Source: Parcubacteria group bacterium GW2011_GWA2_49_9
Lineage (GTDB): Bacteria > Patescibacteriota > Minisyncoccia > Phycocordibacterales > UBA10002
Direction of reading: 5' to 3'
Length of the DNA: 53,116 bases
Assembly: GCA_001004005.1 (NCBI GenBank)
Contig: LCQF01000023.1
Span: forward strand, 1-53,116
The position numbers and the translations under genes are program-made. The first letter of the stretch is position 1, and every line of letters begins with the position of its first letter. Below are positions 13,017 through 51,138 of the stretch, one piece after another. Under the pieces are notes generated by a model. The model saw only the letters and a program-made list of their open reading frames with translations. It did no database searches and was not told the origin of the DNA.

Positions 13017-13033
13017 GTGAGTGATTTCTTATT

Positions 13034-13156
13034 CCTCCTTTCCTAAAGGAGGTGCCGAGGTCTTCCGAGGCGGAGGATTTAAACACCCCCCCTAGCCCCC
13101 TTTATTAAGGGGGATAAATCCCTCCCCCTAACGGGTACTCCCTTTATGAAAGGGAG
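13034..13156. repeat. GC-rich two-hairpin repeat units (3 hairpin-1 copies)
   Basis: ctcctttcctaaaggag, ccccctttattaaggggg, ctccctttatgaaagggag, and the variable stem ccgaggtcttccgaggcgg. Confidence 0.75.
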
Positions 13157-13191
13157 AATTCCGACTAATCGCGTATGTCCCAATTATACTA

Positions 13192-14226: not shown

Positions 14227-14292
14227 ACTCACATTATATAGCAAAACCAACCTATCGGCTGTGCACAGGAAGGAAATGGAGAAGTTTCGTCT

Positions 14293-14413
14293 TATCTCCC
14301 TTACCAAAGGGAGCACTGCGTTCTGACGCAGGAGGGTTGTCTGCCACCGTTTGGGCGAGAGGGGAAACAACCCCCGCCGTATCAGAATACGGCACCCCCT
14401 TTGCTAAGGGGGA
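14293..14413. repeat. GC-rich two-hairpin repeat units (one forward, one reverse)
   Basis: tatctcccttaccaaagggagcactgcgttctgacgcaggagggttgt ... aacaacccccgccgtatcagaatacggcaccccctttgctaagggggat. Confidence 0.75.
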
Positions 14414-14459
14414 TAAAATCCATCGGCATCCATGTTTGTTTCGAGTGATAAGAAATGCT

Positions 14460-16024: not shown

Positions 16025-16033
16025 GGAAAGGAG

Positions 16034-16128
16034 GAAGCTTCTAGCTATTAGGTTTTAGGTTCTAGGACAGGCAAATCAAACGCGAGGACACTTCTTACTA
16101 GAAGCTAGCACCTAGAAGCTGAAAGCTA
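16034..16128. repeat. CTAGAAS-theme intercistronic hairpin (empty, no gene in the loop)
   Basis: gaagcttctagctattaggttttaggttctagg / ctagaagctagcacctagaagctgaaagcta. It spans from the VirB4 stop codon to 9 nt before the next ATG. Confidence 0.7.
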
Positions 16129-17946
16129 CTGTTTGCCTTCCGCCGCCTTCAATTCTTCTTTTGCCGCTTTGATGGAGAGCAGTTGCGACGGGTCGGAGGT
16201 AATAATTTGGTCTTCCGTATACGAGGCGATAACCTTTATGGCGACATGTTTTAGTCCCACGAAGAATAGTCCCTCCCCCACGTCGGATTCCAAAAGAAGA
16301 TATTTTTCTTCATCAGTCAGGTTGAAAATGGTCTGAAGCTTGTCTACCACCGTGGGCGATTGCTTCAAGAGCATTTGCATAGAGGAGTTGGTGAGAATCG
16401 GGAGCCCATATTGGGACTTAAGGAAGTCATCTACGTCTTGTGTGATGGTGGAAAGACCGAGATAGTATTTACGGCCGCGTTTCGCGAGGCCAAGGAGGAA
16501 CGAGGCCGTATCATCCGACTTCATCATCCACCATGCTTCATCAATGACCATCAGACGTTTTTTGAGCTCCTTCCTGATGGAGTTCCAGATAAAGTGCATC
16601 ACGATATACATCGCCGCCGATTTCAGTTCGTCCTCCATATCGCGCAAGGAAAAGACGATAAAGTTCGCGTTGATGTCCACATTGGACGGCTGGTTGATGA
16701 AACCAGACCACGTGCCATGCGTGTATTTTGAAAGGCGTTGCACCAGACTCTCCCCTCCCTGCATACCGGCAAGGACCAGCTCAAAGTCGGAAAGAAGCGG
16801 CGGTTCAATTTTGGAGAAATCGGAATCGGGAGTGATGTCCTTCAGCGCGTAGGTTTCGGTTATCGCGCGGTCTATAATCCCGTCTTCCTCGGCAGTGAGT
16901 CCGCCGAGGAGAATTCGGAACAGCCCCACCAAGTTGATAATGTTGGAGCGAAGCACGTCCGCGGACGATTCGTCTTCCCGAGGAGCCGCGAGTTCAAACG
17001 GATTGATATGATGCTCGGAATTAAGTGAGATATTGAAATACTTTCCTCCTGTGGCCTCGGCAAGAAATTCATATTCCCGCTCGGGGTCAATAACGATAAC
17101 TTCGGTTCCGAACATAAGAGAGCGCAAAATCTCAAGCTTCGTCATATACGATTTTCCCGAGCCACTTTTAGCGAGCGTAATTGAGTTATAGTTCTCTAGA
17201 CTGAAACGGTCAAACAAGACAAGGGAAGAGTTATGGCGGTTGACCCCGTACAAAATACCCTTGTTAGAGGTGAGGTCAAACGAGATAAACGGAAACACGC
17301 TTGAAAGCGGCGATGAATTGAGCTTGTTGTGTACCATAAGCTCGTCGTTCCCCAAAGGCGACGTGCTTCGAAAACCTTGTTCTTGCTGAAACAGCGCAGG
17401 TTTGATGATAACCAGTTTACTTTCCAAAATGGATTTGATTTCATTTTCCGTCTTGTCCAGCTCTTCTTCGGTTGCGGCATAGATAGTGAGATAAATCCCG
17501 ACATCAAACAGCTTTTCCTGCGCCTGCAGGAGGTCGTCGCGAAGCCGCTCCAAGTCCTGGTAGGCCGTTTCAAGCATTGGGTCGCGCACCAGCCCTTTTT
17601 TCTCGCGGTCGGCCATCTGGCTCTGCACCTCGGCGACTTTTTTCTGAAATTGCTTCAGCACTTTCGCGGTGTCCACCGGGTGTACGAAAATACTGATATC
17701 AAACACCTTATCCAGATTGATAATGGGAGCAAACCAACCCTCGGTAAGGTAGCGGGGATATGAAATGACGAAAAAGGTACGAGTGAACTTCCCGCTGACA
17801 TTTAAAGATTTTGGCGCGACCTTAAGCGCCGCGGGAGCGATGACGTCCTGCAGTTCAAGCTGACCCGACTGATAAATCTCCTGCGGCAAGAATTCCGACA
17901 AGTCCTTGTCGTTTTTTTTGGGTTTTAGGAAATCAAATAGCCCCAT
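16126..17946 (-). CDS. virB4: VirB4/TrsE/TraE-family type IV secretion ATPase
   Basis: Walker A LAKSGSGKSY, Walker B RLMVIDEAWWMM, LSTITQDVDDF. N-terminal ISYPRYLTEGWFAPIINLD pattern typical of Gram-positive-type VirB4. Confidence 0.85.
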   Translation of the reverse strand: MGLFDFLKPKKNDKDLSEFLPQEIYQSGQLELQDVIAPAALKVAPKSLNVSGKFTRTFFVISYPRYLTEGWFAPIINLDKVFDISIFVHPVDTAKVLKQFQKKVAEVQSQMADREKKGLVRDPMLETAYQDLERLRDDLLQAQEKLFDVGIYLTIYAATEEELDKTENEIKSILESKLVIIKPALFQQEQGFRSTSPLGNDELMVHNKLNSSPLSSVFPFISFDLTSNKGILYGVNRHNSSLVLFDRFSLENYNSITLAKSGSGKSYMTKLEILRSLMFGTEVIVIDPEREYEFLAEATGGKYFNISLNSEHHINPFELAAPREDESSADVLRSNIINLVGLFRILLGGLTAEEDGIIDRAITETYALKDITPDSDFSKIEPPLLSDFELVLAGMQGGESLVQRLSKYTHGTWSGFINQPSNVDINANFIVFSLRDMEDELKSAAMYIVMHFIWNSIRKELKKRLMVIDEAWWMMKSDDTASFLLGLAKRGRKYYLGLSTITQDVDDFLKSQYGLPILTNSSMQMLLKQSPTVVDKLQTIFNLTDEEKYLLLESDVGEGLFFVGLKHVAIKVIASYTEDQIITSDPSQLLSIKAAKEELKAAEGKQ

Positions 17947-17949
17947 AAT

Positions 17950-18430
17950 AAAGTACCAATCAACTAATCAGAACTAATCTACTAATACCTACGAATCAGA
18001 CCAGACGATTTTGCATTAAAGTTCTCTATCCGCACTATGCGATGAGAACGAACGTAAGTACTACCAAAATTAACCAGAATACCCAGTTTAATTCCTGTGG
18101 CCTGAAGATACCTCTGGGTTTGGACAAAGTCACCACTTGGAATAAAACGCTTGGCTTTCAGTTCAAGGATAATCTTGTCCTCTATAAGAAAGTCAACAAT
18201 GTTATTTGTATCCCCAATCCTGTACTCTCTCTTGTAAATAATGCCCGCCTCCTTTAACTTTTGTTCGAGTAGGTCGGCATATTGTTTTTCCCTTGCAAAT
18301 TTTCCCACCTCATTATGGACTTTATAGCAAAGGCCGACTACATCAAACGAAAGGTCAGGATACAGTAGTCCCACCTCTTTTTTCTTATTTGCAGGTATTT
18401 GTAGATTAGTATTCATTTGCAGATTAGTTT
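17950..18430. mobile_element. Inverted-repeat-flanked cassette carrying GxxExxY-like gene 1 (ACTAATC theme)
   Basis: Arm aactaatctactaatacctacgaatcag (17970-17998) versus the complement of atttgcaggtatttgtagattagta (18388-18412). About 22 of 25 positions match by eye. Confidence 0.45.
17982..18416 (-). CDS. GxxExxY-like PD-(D/E)XK nuclease-superfamily protein
   Basis: Start at MNTNLQ.... LLYPDLSFDVVGLCYKVHNEVGKFAREKQYADLLEQKL...IVDFLIEDKIILELKAKR...LGILVNFG. Confidence 0.75.
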   Translation of the reverse strand: MNTNLQIPANKKKEVGLLYPDLSFDVVGLCYKVHNEVGKFAREKQYADLLEQKLKEAGIIYKREYRIGDTNNIVDFLIEDKIILELKAKRFIPSGDFVQTQRYLQATGIKLGILVNFGSTYVRSHRIVRIENFNAKSSGLIRRY

Positions 18431-19080
18431 TAACTTTCTTGCACGGTCTTCTCGGTTTCCCCCGGGTTGAACAATTGATAAAAGACATCAACAACCTCTT
18501 CGGTTCCAAGTTGCGCCACCCGAACACCGGTCCGGATGAGTCCTTGTTCCACGACGCTGACGCGCTGTTCAAGCTGGGTGCGGTTTTCCTCAAAGCCCTT
18601 CGGCCCCTTTTCGGGAGAAGTATTCTTTGCGCCAAATCCCTCTTTTAGTTTCATCGCCACCCCTCCCCCACTTGCGGAAAGTTGGACGATGGCGGGAGAA
18701 TACGGAACGACGATAAAGAATGTTTTATTCATAATATTCGTTCCCTCCGTAAATTTTGTGACGAAGCCGATATATTCACGCGTCTGGAGCTTCAGTAATT
18801 CATTTTTCTGATTCTTCGCGCGTTCTTCCAGAATCGCGATGTATGGTTTGATATCAAACCGTCTGGACTGCACAATAATTTCCACGGAGAAATCAAGCGA
18901 ATTGAGGAAGTTTTGAAACTGCGAAATAATCGCCGCCTGGTTATCCTCGGATTTCAAGGCGAAATTTATGGACGACGCCATAAGTATGGCGCGTAATCCG
19001 CCGTCTTTCAGGATGACAATGCCATCCCGTATTTCACGGATTTTGACGAACTCCTGCGAAGCCTTTGATGCTATGGCCAT
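18430..19080 (-). CDS. Stand-alone VirB4-N-terminal-domain-like protein
   Basis: IREIRDGIVILKDGGLRAILMASSINFALKSEDNQAAIISQFQNFLNSLDFSVEIIVQSRRFD resembles the N-terminal domain of Gram-positive VirB4 homologues (recalled pattern, not searched). Confidence 0.5.
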   Translation of the reverse strand: MAIASKASQEFVKIREIRDGIVILKDGGLRAILMASSINFALKSEDNQAAIISQFQNFLNSLDFSVEIIVQSRRFDIKPYIAILEERAKNQKNELLKLQTREYIGFVTKFTEGTNIMNKTFFIVVPYSPAIVQLSASGGGVAMKLKEGFGAKNTSPEKGPKGFEENRTQLEQRVSVVEQGLIRTGVRVAQLGTEEVVDVFYQLFNPGETEKTVQES

Positions 19081-19110: not shown

Positions 19111-19578
19111 CATAATGCGAATGCCGCAAATACTGAATGCAAATACTGCGAATTAAGAAACACGTGAATTCAATACCCGTTTTGGATAGAGATTTTGTTG
19201 TTGAAAGTTTACGATAAGACCAAGTTTGAGATTGAGAACCGAAAGGTATCGTTGCATCTGATAGTAATCCTCTCGAGTGACGTGATGTTTGGCCTTTAAG
19301 TCAACAACTATTATACCTTCAATAACGAAATCAGGCACATTGCGCCACGCTTTTTCCCCTACAAACGATGGGGGAAGGCGTACTTCACGCGTATACGATA
19401 AGTTTGCTTTTTTTAGTCCCTCTTCAAAGGCATCGGCGTAGGATTGTTCCGTTCGAAAACGGCCCAAGTCATTGTGGACTTTAAAACAGAGTCCGTTGAT
19501 TTTGTACGATAGTTCTGGATACACCACGCCGTCGTTATTTGCAGCATTCGCATTCTTCATTTGCAGTATTTGCATTAT
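19111..19578. mobile_element. Inverted-repeat-flanked cassette carrying GxxExxY-like gene 2 (AATGCGAAT theme)
   Basis: cataatgcgaatgccgcaaatactgaatgcaaatactgcgaatta (19111-19155) versus the complement of ttatttgcagcattcgcattcttcatttgcagtatttgcattat (19535-19578). About 35 of 44 positions match by eye. Confidence 0.5.
19153..19560 (-). CDS. GxxExxY-like PD-(D/E)XK nuclease-superfamily protein (paralogue of 17982..18416)
   Basis: VVYPELSYKINGLCFKVHNDLGRFRTEQSYADAFEEGL...VPDFVIEGIIVVDLKAKH...LGLIVNF. Start is uncertain (19560 or 19575). Confidence 0.75.
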   Translation of the reverse strand: MKNANAANNDGVVYPELSYKINGLCFKVHNDLGRFRTEQSYADAFEEGLKKANLSYTREVRLPPSFVGEKAWRNVPDFVIEGIIVVDLKAKHHVTREDYYQMQRYLSVLNLKLGLIVNFQQQNLYPKRVLNSRVS

Positions 19579-19618
19579 ATTTATCTTTTGACGTTTTGAT
19601 TTATATCCAGTGCCCACG

Positions 19619-19997: not shown

Positions 19998-21857
19998 TTA
20001 CTGCAAGGGTTCGCGGTACGGGTCAGTTGAGTAACGCTTTTCTTCCCTCGGAAGCGACATAGGAGCCTGTAGTTTTTGGTCAAGGAAATCCTCTTCCTCT
20101 TCCCCGTTCATTTGAGGGGAGTCCGCCGGCTGGCGGAGAGGTGGGGTATTTGATTCGCTCTGCGGTCGGGTTTTATCCCCATCCCCATCCCCCTTAGCAA
20201 AGGGGGCTGCCTTGGGGGGTTGTCTGGTAAAGGGGGTGCTCCCGTCTGCGGGAGCGGGGGTTGTAATACCCCTCCTGCCGGAGACGGCAGTGCTCCCCTT
20301 ATTAGGGGAGATAGCCTTCCCTTCGGGGGGTGGAATGTTTGGAATTGCCGGCTCAAGTTTATTAATCGGATATTTCGGAAGAGGCGAAGACGACGACCCG
20401 ATAGTGTTTATGGAAGGCTTCCATCCGGTAGGCCCTATGGGGGAAGCTTTTGACTGATAGCCTTTAGCTGTTAGAGAAGAGCTTGGGAGAGTGGGGGCTG
20501 CGATTCTCGGCACAGGGACGATACCTTTAGGATTTTCAATATCCCGAAGTACGTCCGCTCGGCTTAAGGGTTCTTCTTCTCCCCCTCCCCTATCCCCCTT
20601 ACCAAAGGGGGTGCCTCCGTCCGCGGAGGCGGGGGTTGTTTTTCCCATACCAAAGGGGGTGCCAGACAACCCTCCTGCCGAAGACGGCAGTGCTCCCTTT
20701 AGTAAGGGAGATGCGGCGAGACCGGGGGTTGTCCCCACTTGTTTTTTCAGGATATTCTCCCCCATATTCCACTTCGCTCCGGCGGAGTACGGAGTAGAAG
20801 AAGCTGATAGTGGAATAGTCGTAGACTGCTTATAGCTTTTAGCTTCTAGTTTATTCTGACTAGAACCTAAAACCTGAAACCTAGCACCTGTTTCTGGGCT
20901 AGAACCTTGAACCTGAAAGCTAGAAGCTGGCTTCGGCACCACGCTCGGTTTCGGAATTGAAAATGAAGTTCCCGCTTCCAGCCGTGGACCAACTCCTACC
21001 GGAGGAGGCTGCACCACTTCCGCATGCATGCTGCGGAGCGATTCGCGCACCTTCACGAGAATCTGCGAACTCACATCGCGGGCGATTTCTCTCGCTCGCT
21101 CCTCGGGAACGCGGAGGCGGTCGGCAAGGTTCTTGATGAAGTCGGCAGGGTGCGTGAGTCCGAGGAGGACAAGCCCCGTCTCGCTCGCGAGCGCGGCCAT
21201 CTGGTCCACGTGCAAGAGGTACTTCTTGGCGATGGCTTGAATGGCATTCGCGGTATCTACCGAAGAAACCGATTGACGGAGGCCCATCGGCAGGTCTTCA
21301 AACGCATTCCGGAGTTCTTCCTCCGAGTACTTTGTTCCCGCGGCGATACGAATAAGCGCCCGTATGTGATTAGGTTCTAGCTTCAAGCTGTTAGCTTCTA
21401 GTTTATTCTGACTAGAGCCTTGAACCTGAAACCTAGCACCTGTCTCTTGGCTAGAACCTGAAACCTGAAAGCTAGAAGCTGGTTTTATCGGCTCCGGCAC
21501 TCTACCCTCTTTAATCGGATACCCCGCCTGTTTCAAAATCGGAAGAACCGGGTCAAATAGTTTCGTTTGGAGTTCGTAGGCAATCGTGGGGATTTTCGGC
21601 ACATTGTCTTCCTCAATGTTTTTGTCTTGTTGTATGAACGCGACGAGCGTATCCGGTGAGGCCTCCCCTTTCAGAACACGAAGTACTCCTTCACAGAGCG
21701 CTCCGGTTTCAGCGAAGACAAACCCCTGTTCGGCGGCAATAGTCGTTGGGAGAATATGTATTTCCGCCACCCCTTTATCAAGGAGCGCGCTGAATACTTT
21801 CTCCGGAAGCGATTCCAGAAAGAGTGATAGTCTTTCTCTTGCGTCTTGAGGATTCAT
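19998..21857 (-). CDS. Hypothetical protein: ~300-aa structured N-terminal part plus a long tail built largely from repeat-element insertions
   Basis: The ORF stays open through two ~90-bp CTAGAAS modules and many GC-rich units (peptides PLLKGALPSSAGG, GTPFGKGD, APFAKGDGDGD). Ends ...DPYREPLQ. Confidence 0.6.
   Translation of the reverse strand: MNPQDARERLSLFLESLPEKVFSALLDKGVAEIHILPTTIAAEQGFVFAETGALCEGVLRVLKGEASPDTLVAFIQQDKNIEEDNVPKIPTIAYELQTKLFDPVLPILKQAGYPIKEGRVPEPIKPASSFQVSGSSQETGARFQVQGSSQNKLEANSLKLEPNHIRALIRIAAGTKYSEEELRNAFEDLPMGLRQSVSSVDTANAIQAIAKKYLLHVDQMAALASETGLVLLGLTHPADFIKNLADRLRVPEERAREIARDVSSQILVKVRESLRSMHAEVVQPPPVGVGPRLEAGTSFSIPKPSVVPKPASSFQVQGSSPETGARFQVLGSSQNKLEAKSYKQSTTIPLSASSTPYSAGAKWNMGENILKKQVGTTPGLAASPLLKGALPSSAGGLSGTPFGMGKTTPASADGGTPFGKGDRGGGEEEPLSRADVLRDIENPKGIVPVPRIAAPTLPSSSLTAKGYQSKASPIGPTGWKPSINTIGSSSSPLPKYPINKLEPAIPNIPPPEGKAISPNKGSTAVSGRRGITTPAPADGSTPFTRQPPKAAPFAKGDGDGDKTRPQSESNTPPLRQPADSPQMNGEEEEDFLDQKLQAPMSLPREEKRYSTDPYREPLQ
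20841..20930. repeat. ~90-bp CTAGAAS module with AGCTTCTAG/CTAGAAGCT termini (copy 1, in-frame in ORF)
   Basis: Near-identical to 21393-21482 by eye. Encodes PASSFQVQGSSPETGARFQVLGSSQNKLEA. Confidence 0.75.
21393..21482. repeat. ~90-bp CTAGAAS module (copy 2, in-frame in ORF)
   Basis: Same termini and same internal order as 20841-20930. Encodes PASSFQVSGSSQETGARFQVQGSSQNKLEA. Confidence 0.75.
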
Positions 21858-26400: not shown

Positions 26401-26625
26401 TTGTCTTAATCCCCCTTAGCAAAGGGGGTGGCCGAGTCCGCGAGGCCGGGGGTTGTTCTTATTCTCCTAGTCTACGACTACAAGCTTTAGTAAAGGGGGT
26501 GCCCGAGTCGGCGAGGGCGGGGGTTGTTTTTTATCTCCCTCATTACCACACCCCTCCTGCCGAAGACGGCACAGTCTGCGACTATTCCAGTGCTCCCCTT
26601 ACTAGGGGAGATGGGGAGAAGTAAG
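26401..26625. repeat. GC-rich two-hairpin repeat array with an embedded TAGTCTACGACTA module
   Basis: atcccccttagcaaagggggtggccgagtccgcgaggccgggggttgt; ctagtctacgactac; tagtaaagggggtgcccgagtcggcgagggcgggggttgt; cctcctgccgaagacggca; ctccccttactaggggag. Confidence 0.8.
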
Positions 26626-29307: not shown

Positions 29308-29368
29308 GTTAGTATAGCAGAGGAATGGGGATAATCGGTGGAAAAACAGTGGATAGTGCTTTCTTTTT

Positions 29369-29770
29369 TATCTCCCTTACTAAAGGGAGTCACGAATTCT
29401 GATTCGGGGAGGGTTGTTATCCCCCTTAGTAAAGTGAAATAGTCGTAGACTAGGGGTGACCAGCCGTAGTTTGCGGCAAACTACGGCTGGTCGGGGGTTG
29501 TTTACACCCCTCCTCCGACGTGACGTCGGAGTGCTCCCTTTGCTAAGGGAGATTCGGCGGAGGCGGGTGTTGTATCTCCCTTACTAAATGGAGTCCCCGA
29601 GTCTGCGAGGGGGAGGGTTGTTATCCCCCTAGTCTACAGTCTACGACTGCAGGCTGACTACTTCGTTACAAAGGGGGTGACCAGCCGTAGTTTGCGGCAA
29701 ACTACGGCTGGTCGGGGGTTGTATCTCCCTTAGAAAAGGGAGTACCGCCGTCTTCGGTGGGGAGGGTTGT
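29369..29770. repeat. Tandem array of ~7 GC-rich two-hairpin units (mostly forward orientation)
   Basis: Constant parts are tatc[ct]cccttaNtaaaggg[ag]g and gg[ga]gggttgt. They alternate with variable palindromic stems (cacgaattctgattcgg; accagccgtagtttgcggcaaactacggctggt, seen twice; ccccgagtctgcgagggg; accgccgtcttcggtgg). Confidence 0.85.
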
Positions 29771-30118
29771 TCTTTTCTTTATCCACAACTCAATCTCTCG
29801 CAACACACTGTCCAAATTATTTCTTACCTCGCCTTCCGTAAACCGAAGAACAGTAACCCCCAGCTTTTCCAATAGTTGTTGTCGCCTTACGTCCTTTTCA
29901 ATTTTTGCATCATGCGTTATGCCATCTATTTCAATAGCAAGGTTGAGCGGGGCGCAATAAAAATCAACGATATAAGATAGAATCGGCTTTTGCCGCGAGA
30001 ACGGATAGCCAATCTTTTTACCCTTTAGTTCTTTCCACAGCAAGACCTCTCCGAGAGTGCCATTTTTTCGGAGGCCTTGAGATAATTTCTTGAGCTCTTG
30101 GTTGTAGTATATTTTCAT
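29702..30118 (-). CDS. DUF559 (Vsr-like) endonuclease-domain protein
   Basis: LWKELKGKKIGYPFSRQKPILSYIVDFYCAPLNLAIEIDGITHD...LGVTVLRFTEGEV. The C-terminal tail TEDGGTPFSKGDTTPDQP is read from repeat units. Confidence 0.8.
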   Translation of the reverse strand: MKIYYNQELKKLSQGLRKNGTLGEVLLWKELKGKKIGYPFSRQKPILSYIVDFYCAPLNLAIEIDGITHDAKIEKDVRRQQLLEKLGVTVLRFTEGEVRNNLDSVLREIELWIKKRTTLPTEDGGTPFSKGDTTPDQP

Positions 30119-30122
30119 AGGG

Positions 30123-30379
30123 TTATCTCCCCTAGTAAGGGGAGCACTGCCGTCTTCGGCAGGAGGGGTGTGGCAAAGGGAGAGGTTAAGACAACCCCCG
30201 CCGTATCAGAATACGGCACCCCCTTTATTAAGGGGGATACAACCCCCGACCAGCCGTAGTTTGCGGCAAACTACGGCTGGGCAACCCCTTTTCTAAGGGA
30301 GATACAACCCCCCCTCGCCGACGAGAGCACCTCATTTGCTGAACAACCCCCCAAGGCAGCCCCCTTTGTTAAGGGGGAT
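30123..30379. repeat. Array of GC-rich two-hairpin units (mostly reverse orientation), mirror of 29369-29770
   Basis: acaacccccgccgtatcagaatacggcaccccctttattaagggggat; acaacccccgaccagccgtagtttgcggcaaactacggctgggcaaccccttttctaagggagat; acaaccccccaaggcagcccccttt gttaagggggat. Confidence 0.85.
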
Positions 30380-30394
30380 AACCGCCATCGCACT

Positions 30395-31237
30395 TTACTG
30401 CGTCAGTATGTACCCCGCTTCCCCTTTCGCAAACAGTATGTTCTTCATCACAAGGTAATCTGAAATATCAGTAAAGGCGCGTACCAACTTTTCCACCGCG
30501 GCGGGATACGCGGTAGCGGTTGAGAGTGTTTGCACCGGGTCAGTCATAGCCTCGTAGCGCTTTATTCTGTCATCAAGATTGGCAAGGTCTATCCCATCCT
30601 CGTTCTCCAACGCGCGCTCAAAGATGATAAGTTCGCTCTCCCCGCCTTCTTTATGGGCGATAACGACGGCGCCTACGGCGTTCCCATACGCCCAGAGCGA
30701 GACATCGGTATCTTCGTCGGCAAAGACGAGCTCACTCTCGGTATATACCTTACTCGGCTTCGCCTCGGGATAACGCTGGATAAAGTCCTCAAGAAGTTTT
30801 TGCTCTTCTTCCGCGGTAAACGGCTGGCCGGACTGTTTGAGTGCCAGATATTTGGCGAACAATTCTCGGGAAAGGCGGTCGGTTTCGGTCCAATCACCCC
30901 CGCCCGGAACGATTTTTTGTTCAATCGTGCCTTTATCCAGCTCGTCTTCCGGCCCCTCCTTGGTAGGATTTCGGCCAAGCTTTATCTCTTCCCCATCTGT
31001 TGTGGTATCGCCATCGGTATCGGGATTGAGGACATCGGTATGCCACAGTTCTTCCTCCCAATCTTTCAAACCATCGTTATCTTGGTCGCGCGAAAGGACG
31101 GCCACCGCTTTTGAAGCCTGTTCGGGGGTCACGCGGCTGAATGTAATTTCCGAACGGCCGCTGTACATAAACCAAACACCGCCCCCGATAAGGGCGAGGA
31201 GGATGATGCCGATACTAATTTTTGTGCGGAAGGTCAT
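30395..31237 (-). CDS. Membrane-anchored protein with a thrombospondin-type-3-like Ca-binding repeat
   Basis: Start MTFRTKISIGIILLALIGGGVWF. DQDNDGLKDWEEELWHTDVLNPDTDGDTTTDGEE. Paralogue of 31391..32425. Confidence 0.65.
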   Translation of the reverse strand: MTFRTKISIGIILLALIGGGVWFMYSGRSEITFSRVTPEQASKAVAVLSRDQDNDGLKDWEEELWHTDVLNPDTDGDTTTDGEEIKLGRNPTKEGPEDELDKGTIEQKIVPGGGDWTETDRLSRELFAKYLALKQSGQPFTAEEEQKLLEDFIQRYPEAKPSKVYTESELVFADEDTDVSLWAYGNAVGAVVIAHKEGGESELIIFERALENEDGIDLANLDDRIKRYEAMTDPVQTLSTATAYPAAVEKLVRAFTDISDYLVMKNILFAKGEAGYILTQ

Positions 31238-31390
31238 AGTTTTTCTGATTCTCCCTTTCTTAAAGGGAGCACTTGAGTCTTCGAAAGGAGGGATTTTTCT
31301 AAATCCTCCGCCTCGCCGACTCGGCACCTCCTTAGTCTACGACTACAGGTTAACAGGAGGAATTAAGACCAGTATACCAAATTCTTCTCC

Positions 31391-32425
31391 TTACCGCGGA
31401 AACGAGAAAATACTTCCCGGTTCGCCTTGGCTGAAGCCCACACCTTCGTTGTATAAGAAGTCGGAAACGGCCACAAACGCCTTGGCAAGGGCAAGAGAAC
31501 TCTCACTGTACTCGGTTATATCGGGACCGGAAAGATAAGCTCCTGCTTTTGTGCCCGAAATAGTCTGAATACTTCTCGCGTAATTTTGATAGGCACGAAC
31601 AAGTGCCGAATGTACCGAAGAAGCCTTTTCTGGCGACACCACCGCCGCAATGTCCAGAGCAATCTGGTCGTACTTTTTCGCGAGTTTTCCGAAGCCTTGA
31701 AGTAGAGCCTCGGTCATTTTCGTATTTCCCGACGCACTGTTCCAAAAAGCAAGCTCGGCGTCCGAGTCGGTCGCGGCCGTTTGTATGGGGGCACCGAGCG
31801 CGTTCCCGAAACTATGCAGAGGATTTTCAGCCTGTGCCTGTTCCCTCCCCTCCGTTTCTAAGGAGGGGACTTGAGGGGTGGTGGTGTCCCCCTTAGAAAA
31901 GGGGGTGCCTCCGTCTGCGGAGGCGGGGGTTGTAGGAGTTGTAGTTTCTTGTGTTAAAAGGGGAACAACCCTCCCCGCCGAAGACGGCGGTACTCCCTTT
32001 AGTAAGGGAGTAACAACCCCCGTCCTCGCCGACTCGGACACCCCCTTTTCTAAGGGGGATTGCAGAACCATTACGGGAGTTTCCAGAGAATCATTCGGTC
32101 CTCCCTTTCTCGGATTTCTATGTGCCACCACTTCCGCTCCATCCGGCGTTCCGTCGCTGTCGGTGTCGGGTTTTTCGGGGTCCGTACCCCAAAGGGCTTC
32201 TTCCCAATCCGGAAGTCCATCGCTGTCTATGTCAAACGTGGAAAACGCTGGTTGTATCCCCCTTAGTAAAGTGGAATAGTCGTAGACTAGGGGTGCCGTA
32301 TTCCGATACGGCGGGGGTTGTTCGGTTCGACTCTTTGACAAAAACCAAATACCGAGTGCGACAAGAAAAAGGATTCCAATGAGAAGCATAACCTCGGTTA
32401 TGAGAGTACCGATAGATTTTTTCAT
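31391..32425 (-). CDS. Membrane-anchored TSP3-like repeat protein (paralogue) carrying ~70 aa of in-frame repeat-unit insertion
   Basis: DIDSDGLPDWEEALWGTDPEKPDTDSDGTPDGAE. Inserted segment PLEKGVSESARTGVVTPLLKGVPPSSAGRVVPLL...ASADGGTPFSKGD. Confidence 0.65.
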   Translation of the reverse strand: MKKSIGTLITEVMLLIGILFLVALGIWFLSKSRTEQPPPYRNTAPLVYDYSTLLRGIQPAFSTFDIDSDGLPDWEEALWGTDPEKPDTDSDGTPDGAEVVAHRNPRKGGPNDSLETPVMVLQSPLEKGVSESARTGVVTPLLKGVPPSSAGRVVPLLTQETTTPTTPASADGGTPFSKGDTTTPQVPSLETEGREQAQAENPLHSFGNALGAPIQTAATDSDAELAFWNSASGNTKMTEALLQGFGKLAKKYDQIALDIAAVVSPEKASSVHSALVRAYQNYARSIQTISGTKAGAYLSGPDITEYSESSLALAKAFVAVSDFLYNEGVGFSQGEPGSIFSFPR

Positions 32426-33004: not shown

Positions 33005-33892
33005 CTACGAATAAGAAAGAAACAAGAAGAGGTGTTTCCAATCCGCGAGAGACAGATTTTCCGGACGCGCTTTCTCCGCGATGTTGCACTCTTTGAGCGT
33101 TGCGGAAGTAACCCCTACATTTGACGCGAGAAGTTTCCTCGGATGAGCGAATCCTTTTTTGAGGAAAGCAAAGAACTCCTGTTCGTTCATTCTCCCTTTC
33201 CTAAAGGGAGTACCGCCTTCCGAGGCGGGGAGGGATTTAAATCCTCCGGCCTCGCCGACTCGGCCACCTCCTTTTGCAAAGGAGGAATAAGAGTCGGTGC
33301 CCGTAAAAAATTCTTTTGAGATATGCTCAATCGCGATAATCGCGGAATCCACGTTCGGTGGCGGAGAAAAGGCTCCCGCCTTTACGGTACCGATATACTT
33401 CGGCGTCCCGTAGGCTTTGACACTTATGGAGAGAATGCTTTCTTTTTTATCGCTGGCGACTATTCTCCGTGCCACTTCTTTTTGTAAGAGCAGGACCATT
33501 GTGTGTGGCGGACACTCTGTCCCTTGGAGAAATTTCCGCAAAAATTGTCCCGTAATGTAATACGGCAAATTCGCCACGATTTTGTAGGGCTTCTTTGAAA
33601 ATTGAAAATTGAAAATTGAAAATTCCAATATGTCGGCATGGATGAGCTCAAACTCTCCTGAAGCGATTTCGGCTGCAAACTTCTGTTCCAACACGGGAAT
33701 AAGCCGGTCGTCTTTTTCAACCGCGATGACTTTTCCCGCTTGCTTGAGCAGTAATTCCGTAAGGACTCCCTCCCCCGGGCCTACCTCAAGCACGGTGTCG
33801 GCAGGCAGAAGCTGTGCCGCCCCCACTATTTTCTGGAGCGCGCCTGCGGAGCGAAGAAAATGTTGACCGAGCGTTTTTTTAGCAAAAACCAT
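33005..33892 (-). CDS. rsmA: 16S rRNA (adenine1518/1519-N6)-dimethyltransferase RsmA/KsgA, with two in-frame repeat insertions
   Basis: KKTLGQHFL, VLEVGPGEGVLT, KIVANLPYYIT. Insertions are gaaaatt x4 (33597-33624) and GC-rich units (33191-33285, SFAKGGGRVGEAGGFKSLPASEGGTPFRKG). Confidence 0.88.
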   Translation of the reverse strand: MVFAKKTLGQHFLRSAGALQKIVGAAQLLPADTVLEVGPGEGVLTELLLKQAGKVIAVEKDDRLIPVLEQKFAAEIASGEFELIHADILEFSIFNFQFSKKPYKIVANLPYYITGQFLRKFLQGTECPPHTMVLLLQKEVARRIVASDKKESILSISVKAYGTPKYIGTVKAGAFSPPPNVDSAIIAIEHISKEFFTGTDSYSSFAKGGGRVGEAGGFKSLPASEGGTPFRKGRMNEQEFFAFLKKGFAHPRKLLASNVGVTSATLKECNIAEKARPENLSLADWKHLFLFLSYS

Positions 33893-33993
33893 AATGCGAA
33901 TCTACGAATAGCTATGCGAATACTGCGAATGCCGATGAAGTCGGAATCTTATTCGTGGTATTCGCATTCTTCATTTGCGGTATTCGCATTATG
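33893..33993. repeat. AATGCGAAT-theme ~100-bp imperfect palindrome exactly filling the uvrD-stop to rsmA-start gap
   Basis: Starts cataatgcgaat... and ends ...attcgcattatg. The rsmA ATG itself pairs with the distal CAT. Confidence 0.8.
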
Positions 33994-36123
33994 TTAATCA
34001 AAAAAGATTATCTTCCCTCCCCCTTCCAGGTAATTTTCAGCCTGCAGGAATTCTTCGTCAATGTCAAAGATGAATTCCGACGGCACCGTTACTTGTCGTG
34101 AGCCGAAAATGGTTCGGACCCCGGCGTATGTCAGGAAGACTTTCTTCTTTGCTCTGGTGACTGCCACATAAAACAGGCGGCGCTCCTCCTCGGCCGCCCC
34201 TTCGTCAAGCGTTTCTCCCATACGTTCGTGCGGGAACAGCCCTTCTTCAAGGCCGGAAATAAATACATAGGTAAATTCAAGTCCTTTTGACGCATGCACC
34301 GTCATAAGCCGTACCGCGGGTTTCTCCTCTTGGAGCTCGTCCTGGTCGCTCTGAAGCGCTACGTCGGAAAGGAATTGATCTACTGCCGCAGTTCTGTCAT
34401 TCCCCTGCTCCCGCCCCTCTCCCTTTCGGGAGCTCCCCTCAAGCAGGGGAGCTGGGGAATCCAGTTCTTTTTGAGTCCCACTCTGGCCCCCCGCATAGTC
34501 TACGACTACTCCGCTCTGCTCCGTCGCGAGGATGACAGACGGCGTGGTTTCAGGGGTCACTGCGTCGTACCTCGTCGCGAAGGTTACGAGTTCCTTGATA
34601 TTTTCCAGACGTTCCTCGTCTTCCGAACCTCCTTTTTTGAGCTCCGCCTCAAGTCCGCTCGCGCTCACAATCCACTTAATAGCCTCCGAAAGCGGCAGAC
34701 TGGAAAGTCTTTGGCGGAATTCCGCTAGCAGTTTTTTAAACGTAGCAAGTTTTTCGCGCATGGCGGGCGGAAGCTCCTTTTCTTTCCCCGCAAAGATTTT
34801 GAGAAGCGTCACCTTGCCAATACCACGCGGAGGAACGTTGATAATCCGTCGCACGTCACCGATACTCTCGGGGTTTTCAGCGGCACGGACATAGGAAAGG
34901 ACATCTTTCACCTCTCTGCGTTCAAAAAAGCGCACTCCAAGAACCTGATACGGCACTTCCTCTCGGAGAAAAGCTTCTTCAAGCGCGCGGCTTTGGAAGT
35001 TCGCCCTGAACAGGACGGCAATAGCGGAGGGGGATGCGCCCTCGGCGATAAGCTGTTTGGAACGCTGTGCGATAAAGGAGGCTTCCTGCACTTCGTCATA
35101 GGCGGTAAACAGTCCCACCTTCTCCCCCTCCCCGTTTTTCGTGAAGAGCGTCTTCTCTCTCCGCATTTTATTTTTCTCAATAATGCGGTTTGCTACCGTG
35201 AGAATGGTCTGGGTAGAGCGGTAATTTTCTTCAAGCAGTACTATCTTTGACTTCGGATAGTCCTTTTCAAAATTCAGAATGTTTTTGATACTCGCTCCCC
35301 GCCAGCTGTAGATGTTCTGGTCAATGTCGCCGACTACCGCGATATTCTTCTCCGCGTCGGCAAGCGATTTCGCGATGATGTATTGCACGTGATTCGTGTC
35401 CTGATACTCGTCAATATGGATATAGCGCCAGCGTTTCTGATAGTGCGCACGCACCATCTCATCTTTCTGCAATAAGACGGCCGTTTTTAACAAAAGGTCG
35501 TCAAAATCAAGCGCCTTTTCTTTGCGGAGAATCGCCTCATACTTTTCCCAGATATCCGCGACTATCGCCGGATAGTAGTCTCCTTCGGAGCGCGCCTTAA
35601 ACTCTTCGCAGGTCACCATCTTCCCTTTCTCACGGCTAATTGACCCGAGAATTTTCCCCGGCTCAAACTGTTTCGGGTCAAGGTCCGTTTCCCTAATCGC
35701 CTCTTTGAGGGCACGTATAGAATCACTACGGTCAAAAATAGTAAACCGTTTGGAAAGACCGAGCCGCTGGCTGTTTTCTCGCAGAATATATACGCCAAGC
35801 GAGTGAAACGTACCGAGCCAAGGGAAGCTGATAGCTTTTAGGTTCTGACTTCTAGGATGTTCCATTCCCTCGGTTTGGCCTAGAAGCTGAAAGCTAGAAC
35901 CTAAAAGCTGGCGGACTCTCTCGCGCATCTCCTTCGCCGCTTTATTCGTAAAAGTGATGGCAAGTATTGACTCTGGAGCGACCCCCTGCTTAATGAGGTG
36001 AAGAATTCGGTGCGTGATTACCCGTGTCTTGCCCGCTCCCGCTCCGGCGACAATAAGAAGGGGGCCCTCGGTATGCTCCACGGCTTCCCGTTGCCGCGCA
36101 TTGAGTCCGAGAAGATAGTCCAT
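33994..36123 (-). CDS. pcrA: UvrD/PcrA-family ATP-dependent DNA helicase, with in-frame repeat insertions
   Basis: Start MDYLLGLNARQREAV. Walker A AGAGAGKTRV. DEYQDTN. VHASKGLEF. Insertions at 35827-35912 (CTAGAAS hairpin) and ~34397-34515 (MITE half-copy plus TAGTCTACGACTA). Confidence 0.9.
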   Translation of the reverse strand: MDYLLGLNARQREAVEHTEGPLLIVAGAGAGKTRVITHRILHLIKQGVAPESILAITFTNKAAKEMRERVRQLLGSSFQLLGQTEGMEHPRSQNLKAISFPWLGTFHSLGVYILRENSQRLGLSKRFTIFDRSDSIRALKEAIRETDLDPKQFEPGKILGSISREKGKMVTCEEFKARSEGDYYPAIVADIWEKYEAILRKEKALDFDDLLLKTAVLLQKDEMVRAHYQKRWRYIHIDEYQDTNHVQYIIAKSLADAEKNIAVVGDIDQNIYSWRGASIKNILNFEKDYPKSKIVLLEENYRSTQTILTVANRIIEKNKMRREKTLFTKNGEGEKVGLFTAYDEVQEASFIAQRSKQLIAEGASPSAIAVLFRANFQSRALEEAFLREEVPYQVLGVRFFERREVKDVLSYVRAAENPESIGDVRRIINVPPRGIGKVTLLKIFAGKEKELPPAMREKLATFKKLLAEFRQRLSSLPLSEAIKWIVSASGLEAELKKGGSEDEERLENIKELVTFATRYDAVTPETTPSVILATEQSGVVVDYAGGQSGTQKELDSPAPLLEGSSRKGEGREQGNDRTAAVDQFLSDVALQSDQDELQEEKPAVRLMTVHASKGLEFTYVFISGLEEGLFPHERMGETLDEGAAEEERRLFYVAVTRAKKKVFLTYAGVRTIFGSRQVTVPSEFIFDIDEEFLQAENYLEGGGKIIFFD

Positions 36124-36220: not shown

Positions 36221-36283
36221 TGTCATCCTCGTGAAAACGGGGGACCAGAGTTTTCTGGATTCCCGCCTTCGCGGGAACGACAG
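36221..36283. mobile_element. MITE-like element, TGTCATYCC family (short copy B)
   Basis: tgtcatcctcgtgaaaacgggggaccagagttttctggattcccgccttcgcgggaacgaca. Confidence 0.5.
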
Positions 36284-36378
36284 AAGACTGTCGTTTGTTT
36301 CGGATTTCGATATTCGGATTTCGAATTTAGATTGAGTTTTTACTCAATCTCCGCTATCCACAGGGTACCGGTTTTCCT

Positions 36379-36715: not shown

Positions 36716-37705
36716 GTGTGGCTTTTTGTGTGTTTGGTAGCCTTGGCCCCTTGGGGTGCGCATGCGGGAGTTCTTTCGTTTATCGGAAACCTTTTCGCGA
36801 AAGAAGCCGAGGCTGAAGTCACGTTTTCGCCCGTTAACTCCCAGACTATCGGGCTTCTCGCGCCGGCGCTCAACCCGGACCCGAACCCTGCCAAAGGAGG
36901 CGGAGATATCACGGTAGTTGGAGGAGTCGCGCTTCTTTCTGAAACCGGACCCGCAGGGACGCTTGCAGATATTGAAGAAAACCAGAGTGGTGTTATCAGC
37001 ATTTACGTGGTTCGTGAAGGCGACACGCTTAGTGCTATCGCTAAGATGTTTGGTGTTACCGTGAGTACGATTGCGTGGGCGAACGATATCTCTAGAAGCG
37101 TCATCCGACCGGGACAGACGCTTATTATTTTACCGATTTCCGGCGTCCGGCACACCGTGGTCAAGGGTGACACCATACAGAGTATTGCCAAAAAATATAA
37201 GGCTGACTTGACTGAAATCACGCAATACAATCATTTTGGCGAAAATACGAAGCTCGCCATAGGCGATATTGTACTTGTACCCGATGGTGAAATCGCTCCT
37301 CCGCCTTCAAATGTGGCCAGTCGTCCGGCAATCCTCCGTGGCGCGGGCGGTCCGAGCTATGACGGCTACTATCTTCGCCCCCTTATTGGCGGACGAAAGA
37401 CGCAGGGTCTTCACGGTTACAATGGTGTGGATATTGCAAGCTATCTTGGCGCCCCGATTCTCGCTTCAGCAGCCGGCACTGTCATTATTGCCAGAACATC
37501 AGGTTGGAATGGAGGATATGGAAACTATATCGTCATTGCGCACCCGAACGGTACGCAAACGCTCTACAGCCACCTTTCAAGCCTCGCCGTCACGGCGGGT
37601 GAATCGGTTACCCGCGGCGAAATCATCGGCTATATGGGTTCTACGGGACGTTCTACTGGCACACACCTCCACTTTGAAGTCCGCGGAGCTAAAAACCCCT
37701 TTTAG
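36716..37705 (+). CDS. LysM-domain M23-family peptidoglycan metalloendopeptidase
   Basis: Two LysM repeats (YVVREGDTLSAIAKMFGV...; HTVVKGDTIQSIAKKYKA...). M23 motifs HGYNGVD and GSTGRSTGTHLHFE. GTG start. Confidence 0.88.
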   Translation: MWLFVCLVALAPWGAHAGVLSFIGNLFAKEAEAEVTFSPVNSQTIGLLAPALNPDPNPAKGGGDITVVGGVALLSETGPAGTLADIEENQSGVISIYVVREGDTLSAIAKMFGVTVSTIAWANDISRSVIRPGQTLIILPISGVRHTVVKGDTIQSIAKKYKADLTEITQYNHFGENTKLAIGDIVLVPDGEIAPPPSNVASRPAILRGAGGPSYDGYYLRPLIGGRKTQGLHGYNGVDIASYLGAPILASAAGTVIIARTSGWNGGYGNYIVIAHPNGTQTLYSHLSSLAVTAGESVTRGEIIGYMGSTGRSTGTHLHFEVRGAKNPF

Positions 37706-37775
37706 CCTCACATGCCCCCCTCCCCCTTTCTAAGGGGGAGAATTGAAGAGGGGGTTGTGACTCTCAATGGAGCAG

Positions 37776-37796
37776 ACCGCGGAAACGCGGTTTTTT
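37776..37796 (+). terminator. Rho-independent terminator after the M23 gene
   Basis: accgcg-gaaa-cgcggt followed by TTTTTT. Confidence 0.75.
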
Positions 37797-38049
37797 CGTT
37801 CTCGCTCTTCCTCCCCTCCTCAGTTGAGGTGAGAAGCGAATACGTGAAGCTTCGCAAGACCTTGAGCGCTCCGTCTTCGGAGAGAGCGAAAGGTGTATAG
37901 TTTCTGTAAGAAAGGGAATTAAAAGGGGTGGTGGTGTTATCCCCCTTAGTAAAGGGGGTGCCGCATTCGATGTGGCGGGGGTTGTTTCTTTTTCTTTCAA
38001 GGCGCTACGCAGTCCTATATACAGAGGACTTACGCATTTCGTGCGTTTT

Positions 38050-44934: not shown

Positions 44935-45095
44935 CCACGGAAGCGACACGGAAGGAAGAACACGGAAGCGACACGGAACCTTCCTATTCCCCCTTTATAA
45001 AAGGGAGCACTGCCGTCTTCGGCAGGAGGGATTTAGTTCCGATTCTGTTCCGCGTTGCTTTGGTTCTGTGTCAGTTCTGCGTATTGAGGCTGACC
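44935..45095. repeat. CACGGAA-theme inverted repeat with a GC-rich two-hairpin unit in its loop
   Basis: cacggaagcgacacggaaggaagaacacggaagcgacacggaacc ... ccccctttataaaagggagcactgccgtcttcggcaggaggg ... gttccgattctgttccgcgttgctttggttctgtg. Confidence 0.65.
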
Positions 45096-50388: not shown

Positions 50389-50880
50389 GTGGGGAAGACA
50401 CAGAAAACTGGTTCGCTCGGTGAAGAACTTGTAACAATGTTTCTTATGAAACGAGGGTACACGATTCTTCATCGGAATTATAGAAGGCCGTGGGGTGAGT
50501 TGGATGTCGTTGCTGTGAAGAAAAATAAAATTCACTTTGTTGAGGTGAAAGCGATGTCACGGGGGTTTGTTTCAGATGAAACCCGCTTGCCCCGTAGTGA
50601 ACCGAGTCCGCGAGGTTCTACTACTGGGGTTTCATCAGAAACATCCGGTCGTGAAAAGGCGTTGGCATACGTGCACTCTGGGATAAAGAAAGATCGCTTC
50701 AGGGCGGAGGATAATGTGAATGCTGTAAAAATGAAGCGATTAGGCCGTATAATACAGACCTATTTGGGTGCGGAACATGTTTCATCTGAAACAAACTGGC
50801 AGTTTGATGTGGCAACGGTATATATAGACGGTACACAGAAGAAAGCAAAAATAAATTTTATGGAGGACCTCATTTTGTGA
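50389..50880 (+). CDS. YraN/UPF0102-family endonuclease-like protein with an in-frame palindromic insertion
   Basis: GSLGEELVTMFLMKRGYTILHRNYRRPWGELDVVA...IHFVEVKA...QFDVATVYI. Insertion ~50569-50642 (VSDETRLPRSEPSPRGSTTGVSSET). GTG start. Confidence 0.7.
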   Translation: MGKTQKTGSLGEELVTMFLMKRGYTILHRNYRRPWGELDVVAVKKNKIHFVEVKAMSRGFVSDETRLPRSEPSPRGSTTGVSSETSGREKALAYVHSGIKKDRFRAEDNVNAVKMKRLGRIIQTYLGAEHVSSETNWQFDVATVYIDGTQKKAKINFMEDLIL

Positions 50881-51042: not shown

Positions 51043-51064
51043 ATTGGTAATTGAGTCCGACGCG

Positions 51065-51104
51065 CCCCGTAGTGAATCGAGTCTTCAAGATTCTACTACT
51101 GGGG
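51065..51104. repeat. Short CCCCGTAGTGA...CTACTACTGGGG hairpin
   Basis: ccccgtagtgaatcgagtcttcaagattctactactgggg. Near-identical arms to the copy inside the YraN gene (50590-50629). Confidence 0.75.
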
Positions 51105-51138
51105 TTCTCGGCTCCCCGAAAATATTTCTTTTTGAGCT

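Follow-up and report, generated by a model that had tools for sequence, protein, structure and literature searches.

Hairpin-forming DNA repeats of several unrelated families have spread in a lineage of Parcubacteria, landing both between genes and inside genes. We describe them from a 53,116-nucleotide (nt) stretch of DNA, hereafter the window, from Parcubacteria group bacterium GW2011_GWA2_49_9 (contig LCQF01000023.1), a tiny groundwater member of the Candidate Phyla Radiation. Here the gene for RsmA/KsgA carries, in frame, two inverted copies of a double hairpin that we call R1. The overall reading, to which we assign a probability of about 0.8, is that such hairpin repeats spread in this lineage, are tolerated in frame in functional enzymes and, in the case of R1, appear to be linked to a cassette with a nuclease gene of the DUF559 family. 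An earlier note on this DNA had likened the in-frame repeats to Rickettsia palindromic elements (RPEs), and this reading is supported by the analysis, in which the repeats were found between genes, in both orientations, and in frame within intact conserved genes; the conditions that the note had named for its refutation were all decided in its favour. Since the same sequences lie between genes and in both orientations, they are DNA repeats and not protein motifs. PcrA from the window matches KKW10986.1 of the named source at 100% identity, and the named nearest relatives of its RsmA are labelled Candidatus Taylorbacteria.

33005-33892, minus strand: RsmA/KsgA, the host gene, 295 amino acids (aa); Pfam RrnaAD, 2.7e-48, over profile positions 4-200 of 263 only.
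33186-33290, minus strand: palindromic insert of 105 nt (35 codons) in frame in RsmA, an R1 doublet; covariance model, codon alignment and fold.

The RsmA insert consists of two R1 units, inverted and tail to tail, which a covariance model built from R1 placed at 33189-33241 (plus strand, E 1e-19) and 33236-33288 (minus strand, E 2e-17). Its bounds, 33186-33290, were taken from a codon alignment with three syntenic orthologues and agree with the stretch of in-frame repeat DNA first proposed for 33191-33285. The syntenic relatives used for comparison of DNA and codons were L001, L003 and L005 (GCA_009694955.1); L005 has no insert in the RsmA linker, L001 has the same doublet, and L003 has a different element at the site, with the ends TGTCATTCC...GGAATGACA. 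The peptide encoded by the insert is SYSSFAKGGGRVGEAGGFKSLPASEGGTPFRKGRM, with EFFTGTDSYSSFAK and SLPASEGGTPFR as expected junction peptides, and the DNA folds as a single long imperfect hairpin (-46.5 kcal/mol, z -2.8). When the 35 residues were deleted in silico, the Pfam match extended to profile positions 4-261 of 263 and its score rose from 164.8 to 175.5 bits.

The earlier note had proposed mapping the insertion points on known structures. In an alignment of RsmA with B. subtilis KsgA (6ifs), residues 5-188 of the query correspond to 23-208 and residues 236-285 to 220-280. About 36 extra residues thus fall between residues 208 and 220 of 6ifs, in the linker that joins the methyltransferase and C-terminal domains. 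The AlphaFold2 model of RsmA has a mean predicted local distance difference test (pLDDT) of 88.4, with both domains above 90, and residues 201-230 have a pLDDT of 46-49 and no secondary structure. Many of 39 aligned orthologues run directly from ISKxFF into E..FFxxLKKGF. Among 110 RsmA orthologues, 46 have a minimal linker of 22 residues; in the remaining 64 the linker exceeds this by 2 to 63 residues and varies greatly in sequence.

33994-36123, minus strand: PcrA/UvrD helicase, 709 aa as annotated, the open reading frame (ORF) extending to 36192; Pfam UvrD-helicase and UvrD_C.
34396-34537, minus strand: complete 142-nt element resembling a miniature inverted-repeat transposable element (MITE), in frame within PcrA; bounded by the terminal repeats TGTCATCC...GGAATGACA, with a TAGTCTACGACTA palindrome nested inside.
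35827-35912, minus strand: long hairpin of CTAGAAS type, in frame in PcrA between ERVRQLLG and WLGTFHS; -32.2 kcal/mol, z -3.6.

The neighboring PcrA gene holds two further inserts of other families. The 142-nt element lies directly before FLSDVALQSD, as had been noted, at the junction of domains 2B and 2A, and maps between residues 527 and 531 of 1pjr; what had been taken for a half-copy near 34397-34515 proved to be complete, with both terminal repeats. It provides about 48 residues of the window PcrA that are absent in 27 of 27 other aligned sequences (65-87% identity), L001, L003 and L005 lack it at the DNA level, and it has intergenic relatives in the window at 4728-4827 and 36229-36290. 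The CTAGAAS hairpin, found where the earlier note had placed it, is common to the window, L001 and L003 and missing from L005, and is the older of the two PcrA inserts. It occupies a loop after ERVRQLLG that is variable in all 28 aligned sequences and maps between residues 80 and 88 of 1pjr, and in L001 further GC-rich hairpins are nested within it. In a PcrA model of only moderate confidence (mean pLDDT 68.7), both inserts are the weakest segments (pLDDT 25-38), the 142-nt element being at 25-27.

These comparisons bear on the view that the segments are native, lineage-specific linkers whose repeated look is a resemblance of low-complexity sequence. The insertion points are indeed naturally variable loops, where the majority of RsmA and PcrA orthologues are extended by some residues. 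However, the unit of about 50 nt is also intergenic and occurs in both orientations, even within one gene (31884 on the plus strand, 31962 on the minus strand), and R1 units are found in unrelated proteins of other genomes. Close orthologues do without the inserts, as in the 46 short RsmA linkers and the 27 PcrA sequences mentioned above, and excision restores the domain matches. Units outside genes and in opposed orientation within one gene already decide against native linkers, which we consider very improbable, and the segments are best read as insertions.

The same small probability is given to the view that the host genes are pseudogenes, or that the inserts were produced by faulty metagenome assembly at repeats. 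The genome is metagenome-assembled and chimeric joins can occur at repeats, but the ORFs are intact and all invariant catalytic columns are present. In RsmA every invariant column of the family is kept, including the S-adenosylmethionine-binding and NxPY motifs, and outside the insert the window and L001 share 76% of amino acids and 54% of third positions, a pattern of purifying selection. The RsmA insert also recurs in L001 and L002, two independent samples of a relative whose RsmA shares 74% of aligned residues with that of the window. Another assembly of the strain from which the window comes contains PcrA with its inserts and one substitution (P0241) and an RsmA fragment with its insert (P0244). 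The inserts are present as well in the cluster members of the window proteins, among which no strain-level polymorphism of filled and empty sites was found.

The R1 consensus was derived from 22 aligned copies of the GC-rich unit. R1 is a double hairpin of about 50 nt, made of a stem-loop YCCCC-TTAnnAAA-GGGGR, a second hairpin with a TCYK loop, and a GGGGGTTGT tail. In the second stem, 6 of 6 pairs show double changes, with 38 cells compared to 13.5 after shuffling (a count of 38 was reached in 0 of 500 shuffles), and sliding the partner columns abolishes this covariation signal. Dozens of stem variants surround one loop, and stem variants of hairpin B are identical between genomes. The covariance model gave about 32 matches with E<1e-4 in the window, on both strands and about half of them intergenic or non-coding. 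Most form a doublet of about 100 nt with its units tail to tail; of inverted neighboring units, 46 pairs are tail to tail and 2 head to head. All copies but one lie at 13-38 kb, a region with a TraG-like/PrgI gene cluster and large proteins of unknown function, while none was found at 1-13 kb and one at 38-53 kb. In the syntenic regions of the relatives, L003 has one copy, L005 none, and L001 the RsmA doublet only, which indicates an expansion in the lineage of the window.

Among 185,579 species representatives the exact R1 pattern was found in 38 stretches of only 8 genomes, all Patescibacteria, and it also occurs in 96 metagenome stretches, several of them visibly from Hainich groundwater; no copy was found in the viral contigs searched. 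Rfam models run over 29.3-36.3 kb, at the gathering threshold and at E<=1, returned only tRNAs and chance microRNA-like matches. An nhmmer census of 1.1 Mb of related DNA collected 274 non-redundant R1 units, 52% of which fall in ORFs with at least 60 open codons on each side of the unit, compared to 47% of random 53-mers. Thus R1 is not excluded from genes. Of the 20 longest R1 host ORFs, 19 are recognisable housekeeping enzymes, namely GyrB (2), DnaE (2), UvrA (2), PheT (4), class II aminoacyl-tRNA synthetase (2), RecJ (2), and one each of SecA, PNPase, RNase J-like nuclease, GuaA and UvrC. Head-to-tail arrays of R1 with a period of 48 nt (16 codons) were seen in L033 (1451-1599), L119 (1289-1899), L053, L069, L105 and others, some of them within long ORFs and encoding repeats like ETTPAVSEYGTPFGKG.

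Three more genes of the window carry hairpin repeats in frame.

31884-32062, minus strand: three in-frame R1 units within the central linker of a TSP3-like gene (31391-32425); covariance model.
20207-20735, minus strand: five R1 units in frame in an ORF of 619 aa (19998-21857), a conserved Taylorbacteria-type protein with 43 homologues.
50569-50642, plus strand: nested hairpin in frame in YraN/UPF0102 (50389-50880); repeat family D20, not R1; loop motif GAGTCCGCGAGG.

All three had been named as hosts in the earlier note. The three units give the TSP3-like protein about 45 extra residues relative to its L001 and L003 orthologues, and the opposed units at 31884 and 31962 belong to this set. A fourth unit of the gene, at 32259-32322, is interrupted, with TAGTCTACGACTA between its two hairpins. 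Two R1-derived stretches of the 619-aa ORF are missing from 11 aligned homologues, and several homologues have R1-type peptides at other positions, which points to independent insertions. For YraN the in-frame insert stood, since in-silico excision extends the Pfam UPF0102 match from profile positions 1-43 to 1-80 of 80, but the hairpin family is a different one. The YraN hairpin (50589-50631) has a second copy, 88% identical, at 51064-51106 directly after tRNA-Pro. Its loop type, GAGTCCGCGAGG or GAGTCTTCAAG, is the loop motif of the variable hairpin of R1, which suggests that a hairpin with a GAGTCCGCGAGG-type loop may be a module common to several families.

Different elements were also found at the same spot in different lineages. 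The TGTCATYCC...GGAATGACA element sits in the RsmA linker of at least 6 orthologues (P0003, P0032, P0035, P0039, P0080 and P0087), and the class of RsmA linkers longer by 15 residues has hairpins of 7-11 bp that differ between lineages. For three relatives these small linker hairpins had no second copy, by exact 14-mers, within their loci of 11-21 kb, and were not counted as repeats. This raises a possibility that many small hot-spot hairpins arose locally, by template switching or hairpin-primed repair, and not as mobile copies, and the hairpins nested within hairpins in L001 PcrA point the same way. Local origin leaves R1, the TGTCATYCC element and the CTAGAAS arms unexplained, however, as dispersed copies at distant loci of the window are up to 93% identical and the stem variants of hairpin B are identical between genomes; moreover, the single-copy result covers only short stretches of the genome of each relative. 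We regard such an origin as improbable, at about one chance in ten for the small hairpins.

Whether the inserts are read as protein can be judged from their frames. Because the R1 stem-loop is palindromic, two phases are free of stops, and they remain the same two when a unit is turned round, while TAG or TAA closes the third. With respect to the host gene, 64 units are in sense and 78 in antisense orientation. The open phase that encodes P-[L/F]-x-K-G (GTPFSKGD or SPLxKGVP) is the sole phase in 65 host ORFs and the other phase in 7, a bias whose p-value is overstated because orthologous hosts are not independent. As both phases stay open, a ratio of 65:7 has no easy explanation other than production of the peptide and selection on it. 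From the open frames and this bias we infer that in-gene inserts are translated.

A further view is that the hairpins are kept for a function, such as translation pausing at domain boundaries, protection of mRNA, signals for recombination or replication, or recruited peptides. When the window is compared with L001, third positions are 82% identical within the RsmA insert and 54% in the rest of the gene. This would not be expected of neutral junk and points to constraint at the nucleic-acid level, gene conversion or recent exchange. Together with the phase bias, the stem covariation around a conserved loop and the presence of some hairpin at the same linker in more than half of the 110 RsmA orthologues agree with a function. 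On the other hand, the near balance of 64 sense and 78 antisense units, with at least four reading frames used, argues against a single RNA-level role, many orthologues are free of inserts, no Rfam family matches, and the covariation would be no less expected of a hairpin required for mobility alone. We consider retention for function unlikely, though slightly less so than the local origin discussed above.

29670-30291, minus strand: R1-DUF559-R1 cassette, with the DUF559 gene at 29702-30118 and inverted arms of 101 nt at 29670-29770 and 30191-30291 (repeat I2).

A clue to the spread of R1 may come from this cassette. Its protein matches Pfam DUF559 over residues 8-111 of 138 (6e-29) and PDB 3hrl (1e-13) and is Vsr-like. 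The last 25 codons of the gene are the right-hand R1 unit (29721-29773), so what the earlier note had listed as an insertion in the DUF559 tail is R1 indeed, but as the terminal repeat of the cassette, into which the gene runs. The cassette is missing from the syntenic L003 and L005, and the closest DUF559 homologues, in five other contigs (62-81% identity), have the same architecture: one R1 unit ends within about 30 nt of the ATG, and an inverted unit follows right after the last conserved codons (...WIKK, then ACAACCCCC...). The contigs agree at every base of the right junction and differ in the sequence beyond it. Across the six contigs, two of which (L044 and the window) had not been selected through the R1 pattern, covariance-model matches to R1 lie within 32 nt on both sides of DUF559 in four and on one side in two; in L044, one of the latter, the upstream R1-type repeat was recognised by eye only. 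The IVP and PDDEXK_3 genes in the same loci do not adjoin R1.

The tail-to-tail bias of 46:2 is the geometry of this cassette with its gene removed, and it is also the geometry of the RsmA insert; the earlier note had not recognised the GC-rich units as such doublets. R1 doublets may accordingly be non-autonomous derivatives of the cassette, a point on which we are less certain than on translation. A wider proposal is tentative, and we hold it to be somewhat doubtful: Patescibacteria would have a mobile element not described before, with a Vsr-like DUF559 endonuclease as its only gene between two inverted double-hairpin ends, and the doublets would be the form of it that lacks this gene. This would resemble the partnership of doublets of repetitive extragenic palindromic sequences (REP; the doublets, REPINs) with REP-associated tyrosine transposases (RAYTs), but would be built on a different enzyme, one that recognises hairpin shape and not sequence, and be adapted to the essential genes of very small, gene-dense genomes.

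The process we propose may be put as follows. The DUF559 nuclease, or another factor recognising hairpins, would mobilise R1 doublets. Copies inside genes would persist only if their net length keeps the frame, if a stop-free phase encodes a flexible peptide with abundant Gly, Pro, Ser, Thr and Lys (P-[L/F]-x-K-G), and if they sit where the protein structure allows it, for example in a domain linker or surface loop. The host enzyme would then stay functional with the insert translated as a disordered loop, and different families would accumulate at the same permissive spots in different lineages.

Several observations weigh against this account. R1 units are not unusually stop-free (3.56 of 6 frames open per unit, compared to 3.48 for random genomic 53-mers); pre-adaptation through depletion of stop codons was rejected on these values. 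The expectation that insert lengths would be multiples of three left a weak trend only, one doublet length class modulo 3 comprising 14 of 20 doublets inside ORFs and 8 of 20 outside. The third-position identity of the RsmA insert does not suit a neutral insert, the PcrA model is only moderate, and most census loci were obtained via the R1 pattern and may include orthologous insertions that are not independent. As for mobility, no transposase, and no Y1 transposase in particular, was found among 35 window ORFs scanned with Pfam, a search that did not extend to the rest of the genome. By inspection, no target-site duplications were seen for any family at the RsmA and PcrA junctions or at intergenic copies, the exact ends of which could not be set for want of a near-identical empty site. 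DUF559 could also be a passenger that landed in the centre of doublets.

The remaining features of the window are given below.

13031-13159, no strand assigned: intergenic R1 cluster; covariance model.
14292-14416, no strand assigned: intergenic R1 doublet, confirmed outside genes; covariance model.
26407-26614, no strand assigned: intergenic R1 cluster; covariance model.
29368-29624 and 30123-30381, no strand assigned: non-coding R1 copies; covariance model.
31248-31364, no strand assigned: R1 doublet upstream of a 310-aa gene; the ORF extension over the doublet is absent in the L003 orthologue.
33597-33624, no strand assigned: (GAAAATT)x4 tandem tract in RsmA, encoding FSIFNFQFS at residues ~91-99; the sole such tract in the window.
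37689-37988, no strand assigned: R1 units in intergenic DNA, downstream of the gene for the M23/LysM peptidase; covariance model.
44986-45038, plus strand: single R1 unit upstream of the PNPase gene; covariance model.

The tandem tract in RsmA had been listed together with the insert. It exists at these coordinates, and on the coding strand (TTTTCAA)x4 is common to the window, L001 and L003 at the nucleotide level (raised third-position identity, 0.71-0.74). Its status as an insertion of a dispersed repeat was rejected, however, because the window has a single such tract and its length is the same in orthologues. RsmA orthologues elsewhere have other strings of equal length at this position (LDTKRFTLNAK, PTNYSLLTT, PSAYSLEPR and others), some of them short-period-like, and the tract is a length-neutral, replaceable segment. 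Also rejected was the N-terminal extension of the 310-aa ORF over R1 as coding sequence, since the L003 orthologue does not have it; these copies are 5' non-coding. The 310-aa protein itself (30395-31327) lacks a stretch of 38 residues, LSELLTIPAPRGVATMHVDLLNAVEALRAGTAGMALAF, that is present in its orthologue at L003:12653-13630.

The repeat search of the window returned many direct and inverted families. The CTAGAAS-type arm has 20 matches in the window compared to 0.05 expected, and the 13-nt palindrome TAGTCTACGACTA has 7 compared to 0.02 expected (at 20816, 26468, 29440, 31333, 32277, 34496 and 38080). The latter is often nested in other elements, such as the R1 unit at 32259-32322 and the PcrA element, and in frame it is read as VVDY or LVYDY. 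Several frames of the TGTCATYCC...GGAATGACA element encode recognisable peptides, LDSRLRGND, WIPAFAGMT and CHPRE.GDP (36229-36290, the N-terminal extension of P0123, and RsmA orthologues). The genes of the window include dnaA, dnaN, a class I aminoacyl-tRNA synthetase, penicillin-binding protein 1, YidC and a TraG-like ATPase with large unknown proteins, as well as RsmA, PcrA, the M23/LysM peptidase, ComM, PNPase and the CCA-adding enzyme. Inteins (PF14890) interrupt PcrA (about 1030 aa) in the relatives P0137, P0140, P0149, P0158, P0166 and P0218, and another intein is found in GyrB of a relative (L022:4161-7745), where the same GyrB bears an R1 unit.

Other small genes lie directly between short inverted repeats, in the window at 10269-10720, 17973-18410 and 19111-19617 and also in L040, L134, L029, L036 and L100. 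The nested genes are 23S-rRNA-IVP/bAvd-like (10288-10668) and PDDEXK_3 (17982-18635 and 19153-19617), and the repeat arms are degenerate tandem units of 7-8 nt, of CTAGAAS type or GCGAATAC type. Inverted matches of at least 28 bits from flank to flank were obtained in 9 of 13 testable cases, the 95th percentile of controls being 20.3 bits. The same arm types occur as empty intergenic hairpins at 33893-33993, 8338-8425, 16029-16139 and 21365-21485, and also inside PcrA. If the reading of the DUF559 cassette is true, these genes in other palindromes would make it one case of a wider habit.

For the hosts, the inserts amount to a natural map of permissive sites, showing where essential enzymes tolerate 16-50 extra residues. 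They also split domain matches (RsmA and YraN), inflate protein lengths and probably fragment assemblies.

In the paper library searched, no paper on such elements in Patescibacteria was found, and comparison was made with systems known elsewhere. Like bacterial MITEs (ERIC/RU, Correia, BOX and the cyanobacterial ones), the R1 doublets and the TGTCATYCC...GGAATGACA element are small (under ~300 bp), do not code by themselves and have terminal inverted repeats. Bacterial MITEs occasionally form in-frame fusions with host ORFs (PMC10969869, PMC2759123), whereas here copies within genes are usual, essential enzymes serve as hosts and no target-site duplications were seen at the junctions inspected. 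As for an autonomous partner, the R1-DUF559-R1 cassette has the same ends as the doublets, but DUF559 is not a known transposase.

REP and REPIN sequences (PMC3116915) are similar in form: an inverted doublet of short palindromes appears to be the unit of spread here as in REPINs, and hairpin structure outweighs stem sequence. As in REP-RAYT systems, a single small gene lies between two inverted repeat copies. The flanked gene differs, being a Vsr-like PD-(D/E)XK endonuclease and not a HUH/Y1 transposase, and the 22-unit R1 consensus has no conserved GTAG or CGTC head of the REP kind (PMC3733652), CGTC appearing in some loop variants only. REP and REPIN are extragenic, in contrast to R1, which is as frequent in genes as outside them.

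Palindromic coding repeats known as PARCELs (PMC2996958) share coding dyad symmetry and similar peptides from both strands, just as the R1 stem-loop reads P-[L/F]-x-K-G both ways. Those are tandem domains of 25 residues in surface or membrane ORFs of unknown function, unlike R1, which is dispersed in housekeeping enzymes and between genes. R1 also resembles the double-hairpin elements of mitochondria. GC-rich mitochondrial hairpin elements (PMC2800124) are likewise short modules in compact genomes, sometimes placed in rRNA or protein genes at length-variable sites; they differ in being organellar, in having no nuclease gene reported with them, and in entering protein genes more rarely. A homing endonuclease of a group I intron is among the members of the Vsr/DUF559 clade (PMC3424549), and the DUF559 gene, like free-standing homing endonuclease genes, is a small nuclease gene present or absent between conserved neighbors. 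It has no intron or intein context, however, and homing fails to explain gene-less doublets at unrelated sites.

The closest likeness in behaviour is to RPEs, which are interspersed palindromes of 100-150 bp, intergenic and coding, found in frame in unrelated metabolic genes, with lineage-specific proliferation and an old insert in PheT (PMC10969869, PMC1779305). Like RPE-1 to RPE-10, the repeats described here comprise several families, lie between genes and in frame in functional genes at sites tolerated by the fold, include some old shared inserts, and have PheT among their hosts. In size and hairpin, the RsmA doublet (105 nt, -46.5 kcal/mol) and the PcrA element (142 nt) fall within the RPE range, whereas the R1 unit is shorter, at about 50 nt with doublets of about 100 nt, and has a freely covarying stem and a conserved loop. 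R1 also differs from RPEs in its nuclease-gene cassette and in not being depleted from coding DNA, and its hosts are Patescibacteria with small, gene-dense genomes, not Rickettsiales or intracellular Alphaproteobacteria. We do not claim membership of the RPE families; the likeness would be one of behaviour in a different host lineage. The cassette link offers a concrete hypothesis for how such elements move, a question that is still open for RPEs too. The colonisation of essential genes by in-frame palindromes, which has been treated as a peculiarity of Rickettsia, would thus have a second, independent case in the Candidate Phyla Radiation, and a more pervasive one, with GyrB, DnaE, SecA, UvrA, PheT, RsmA and PcrA all as hosts. 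It looks like a general survival route for selfish DNA where intergenic space is scarce, and a source of new loop peptides.

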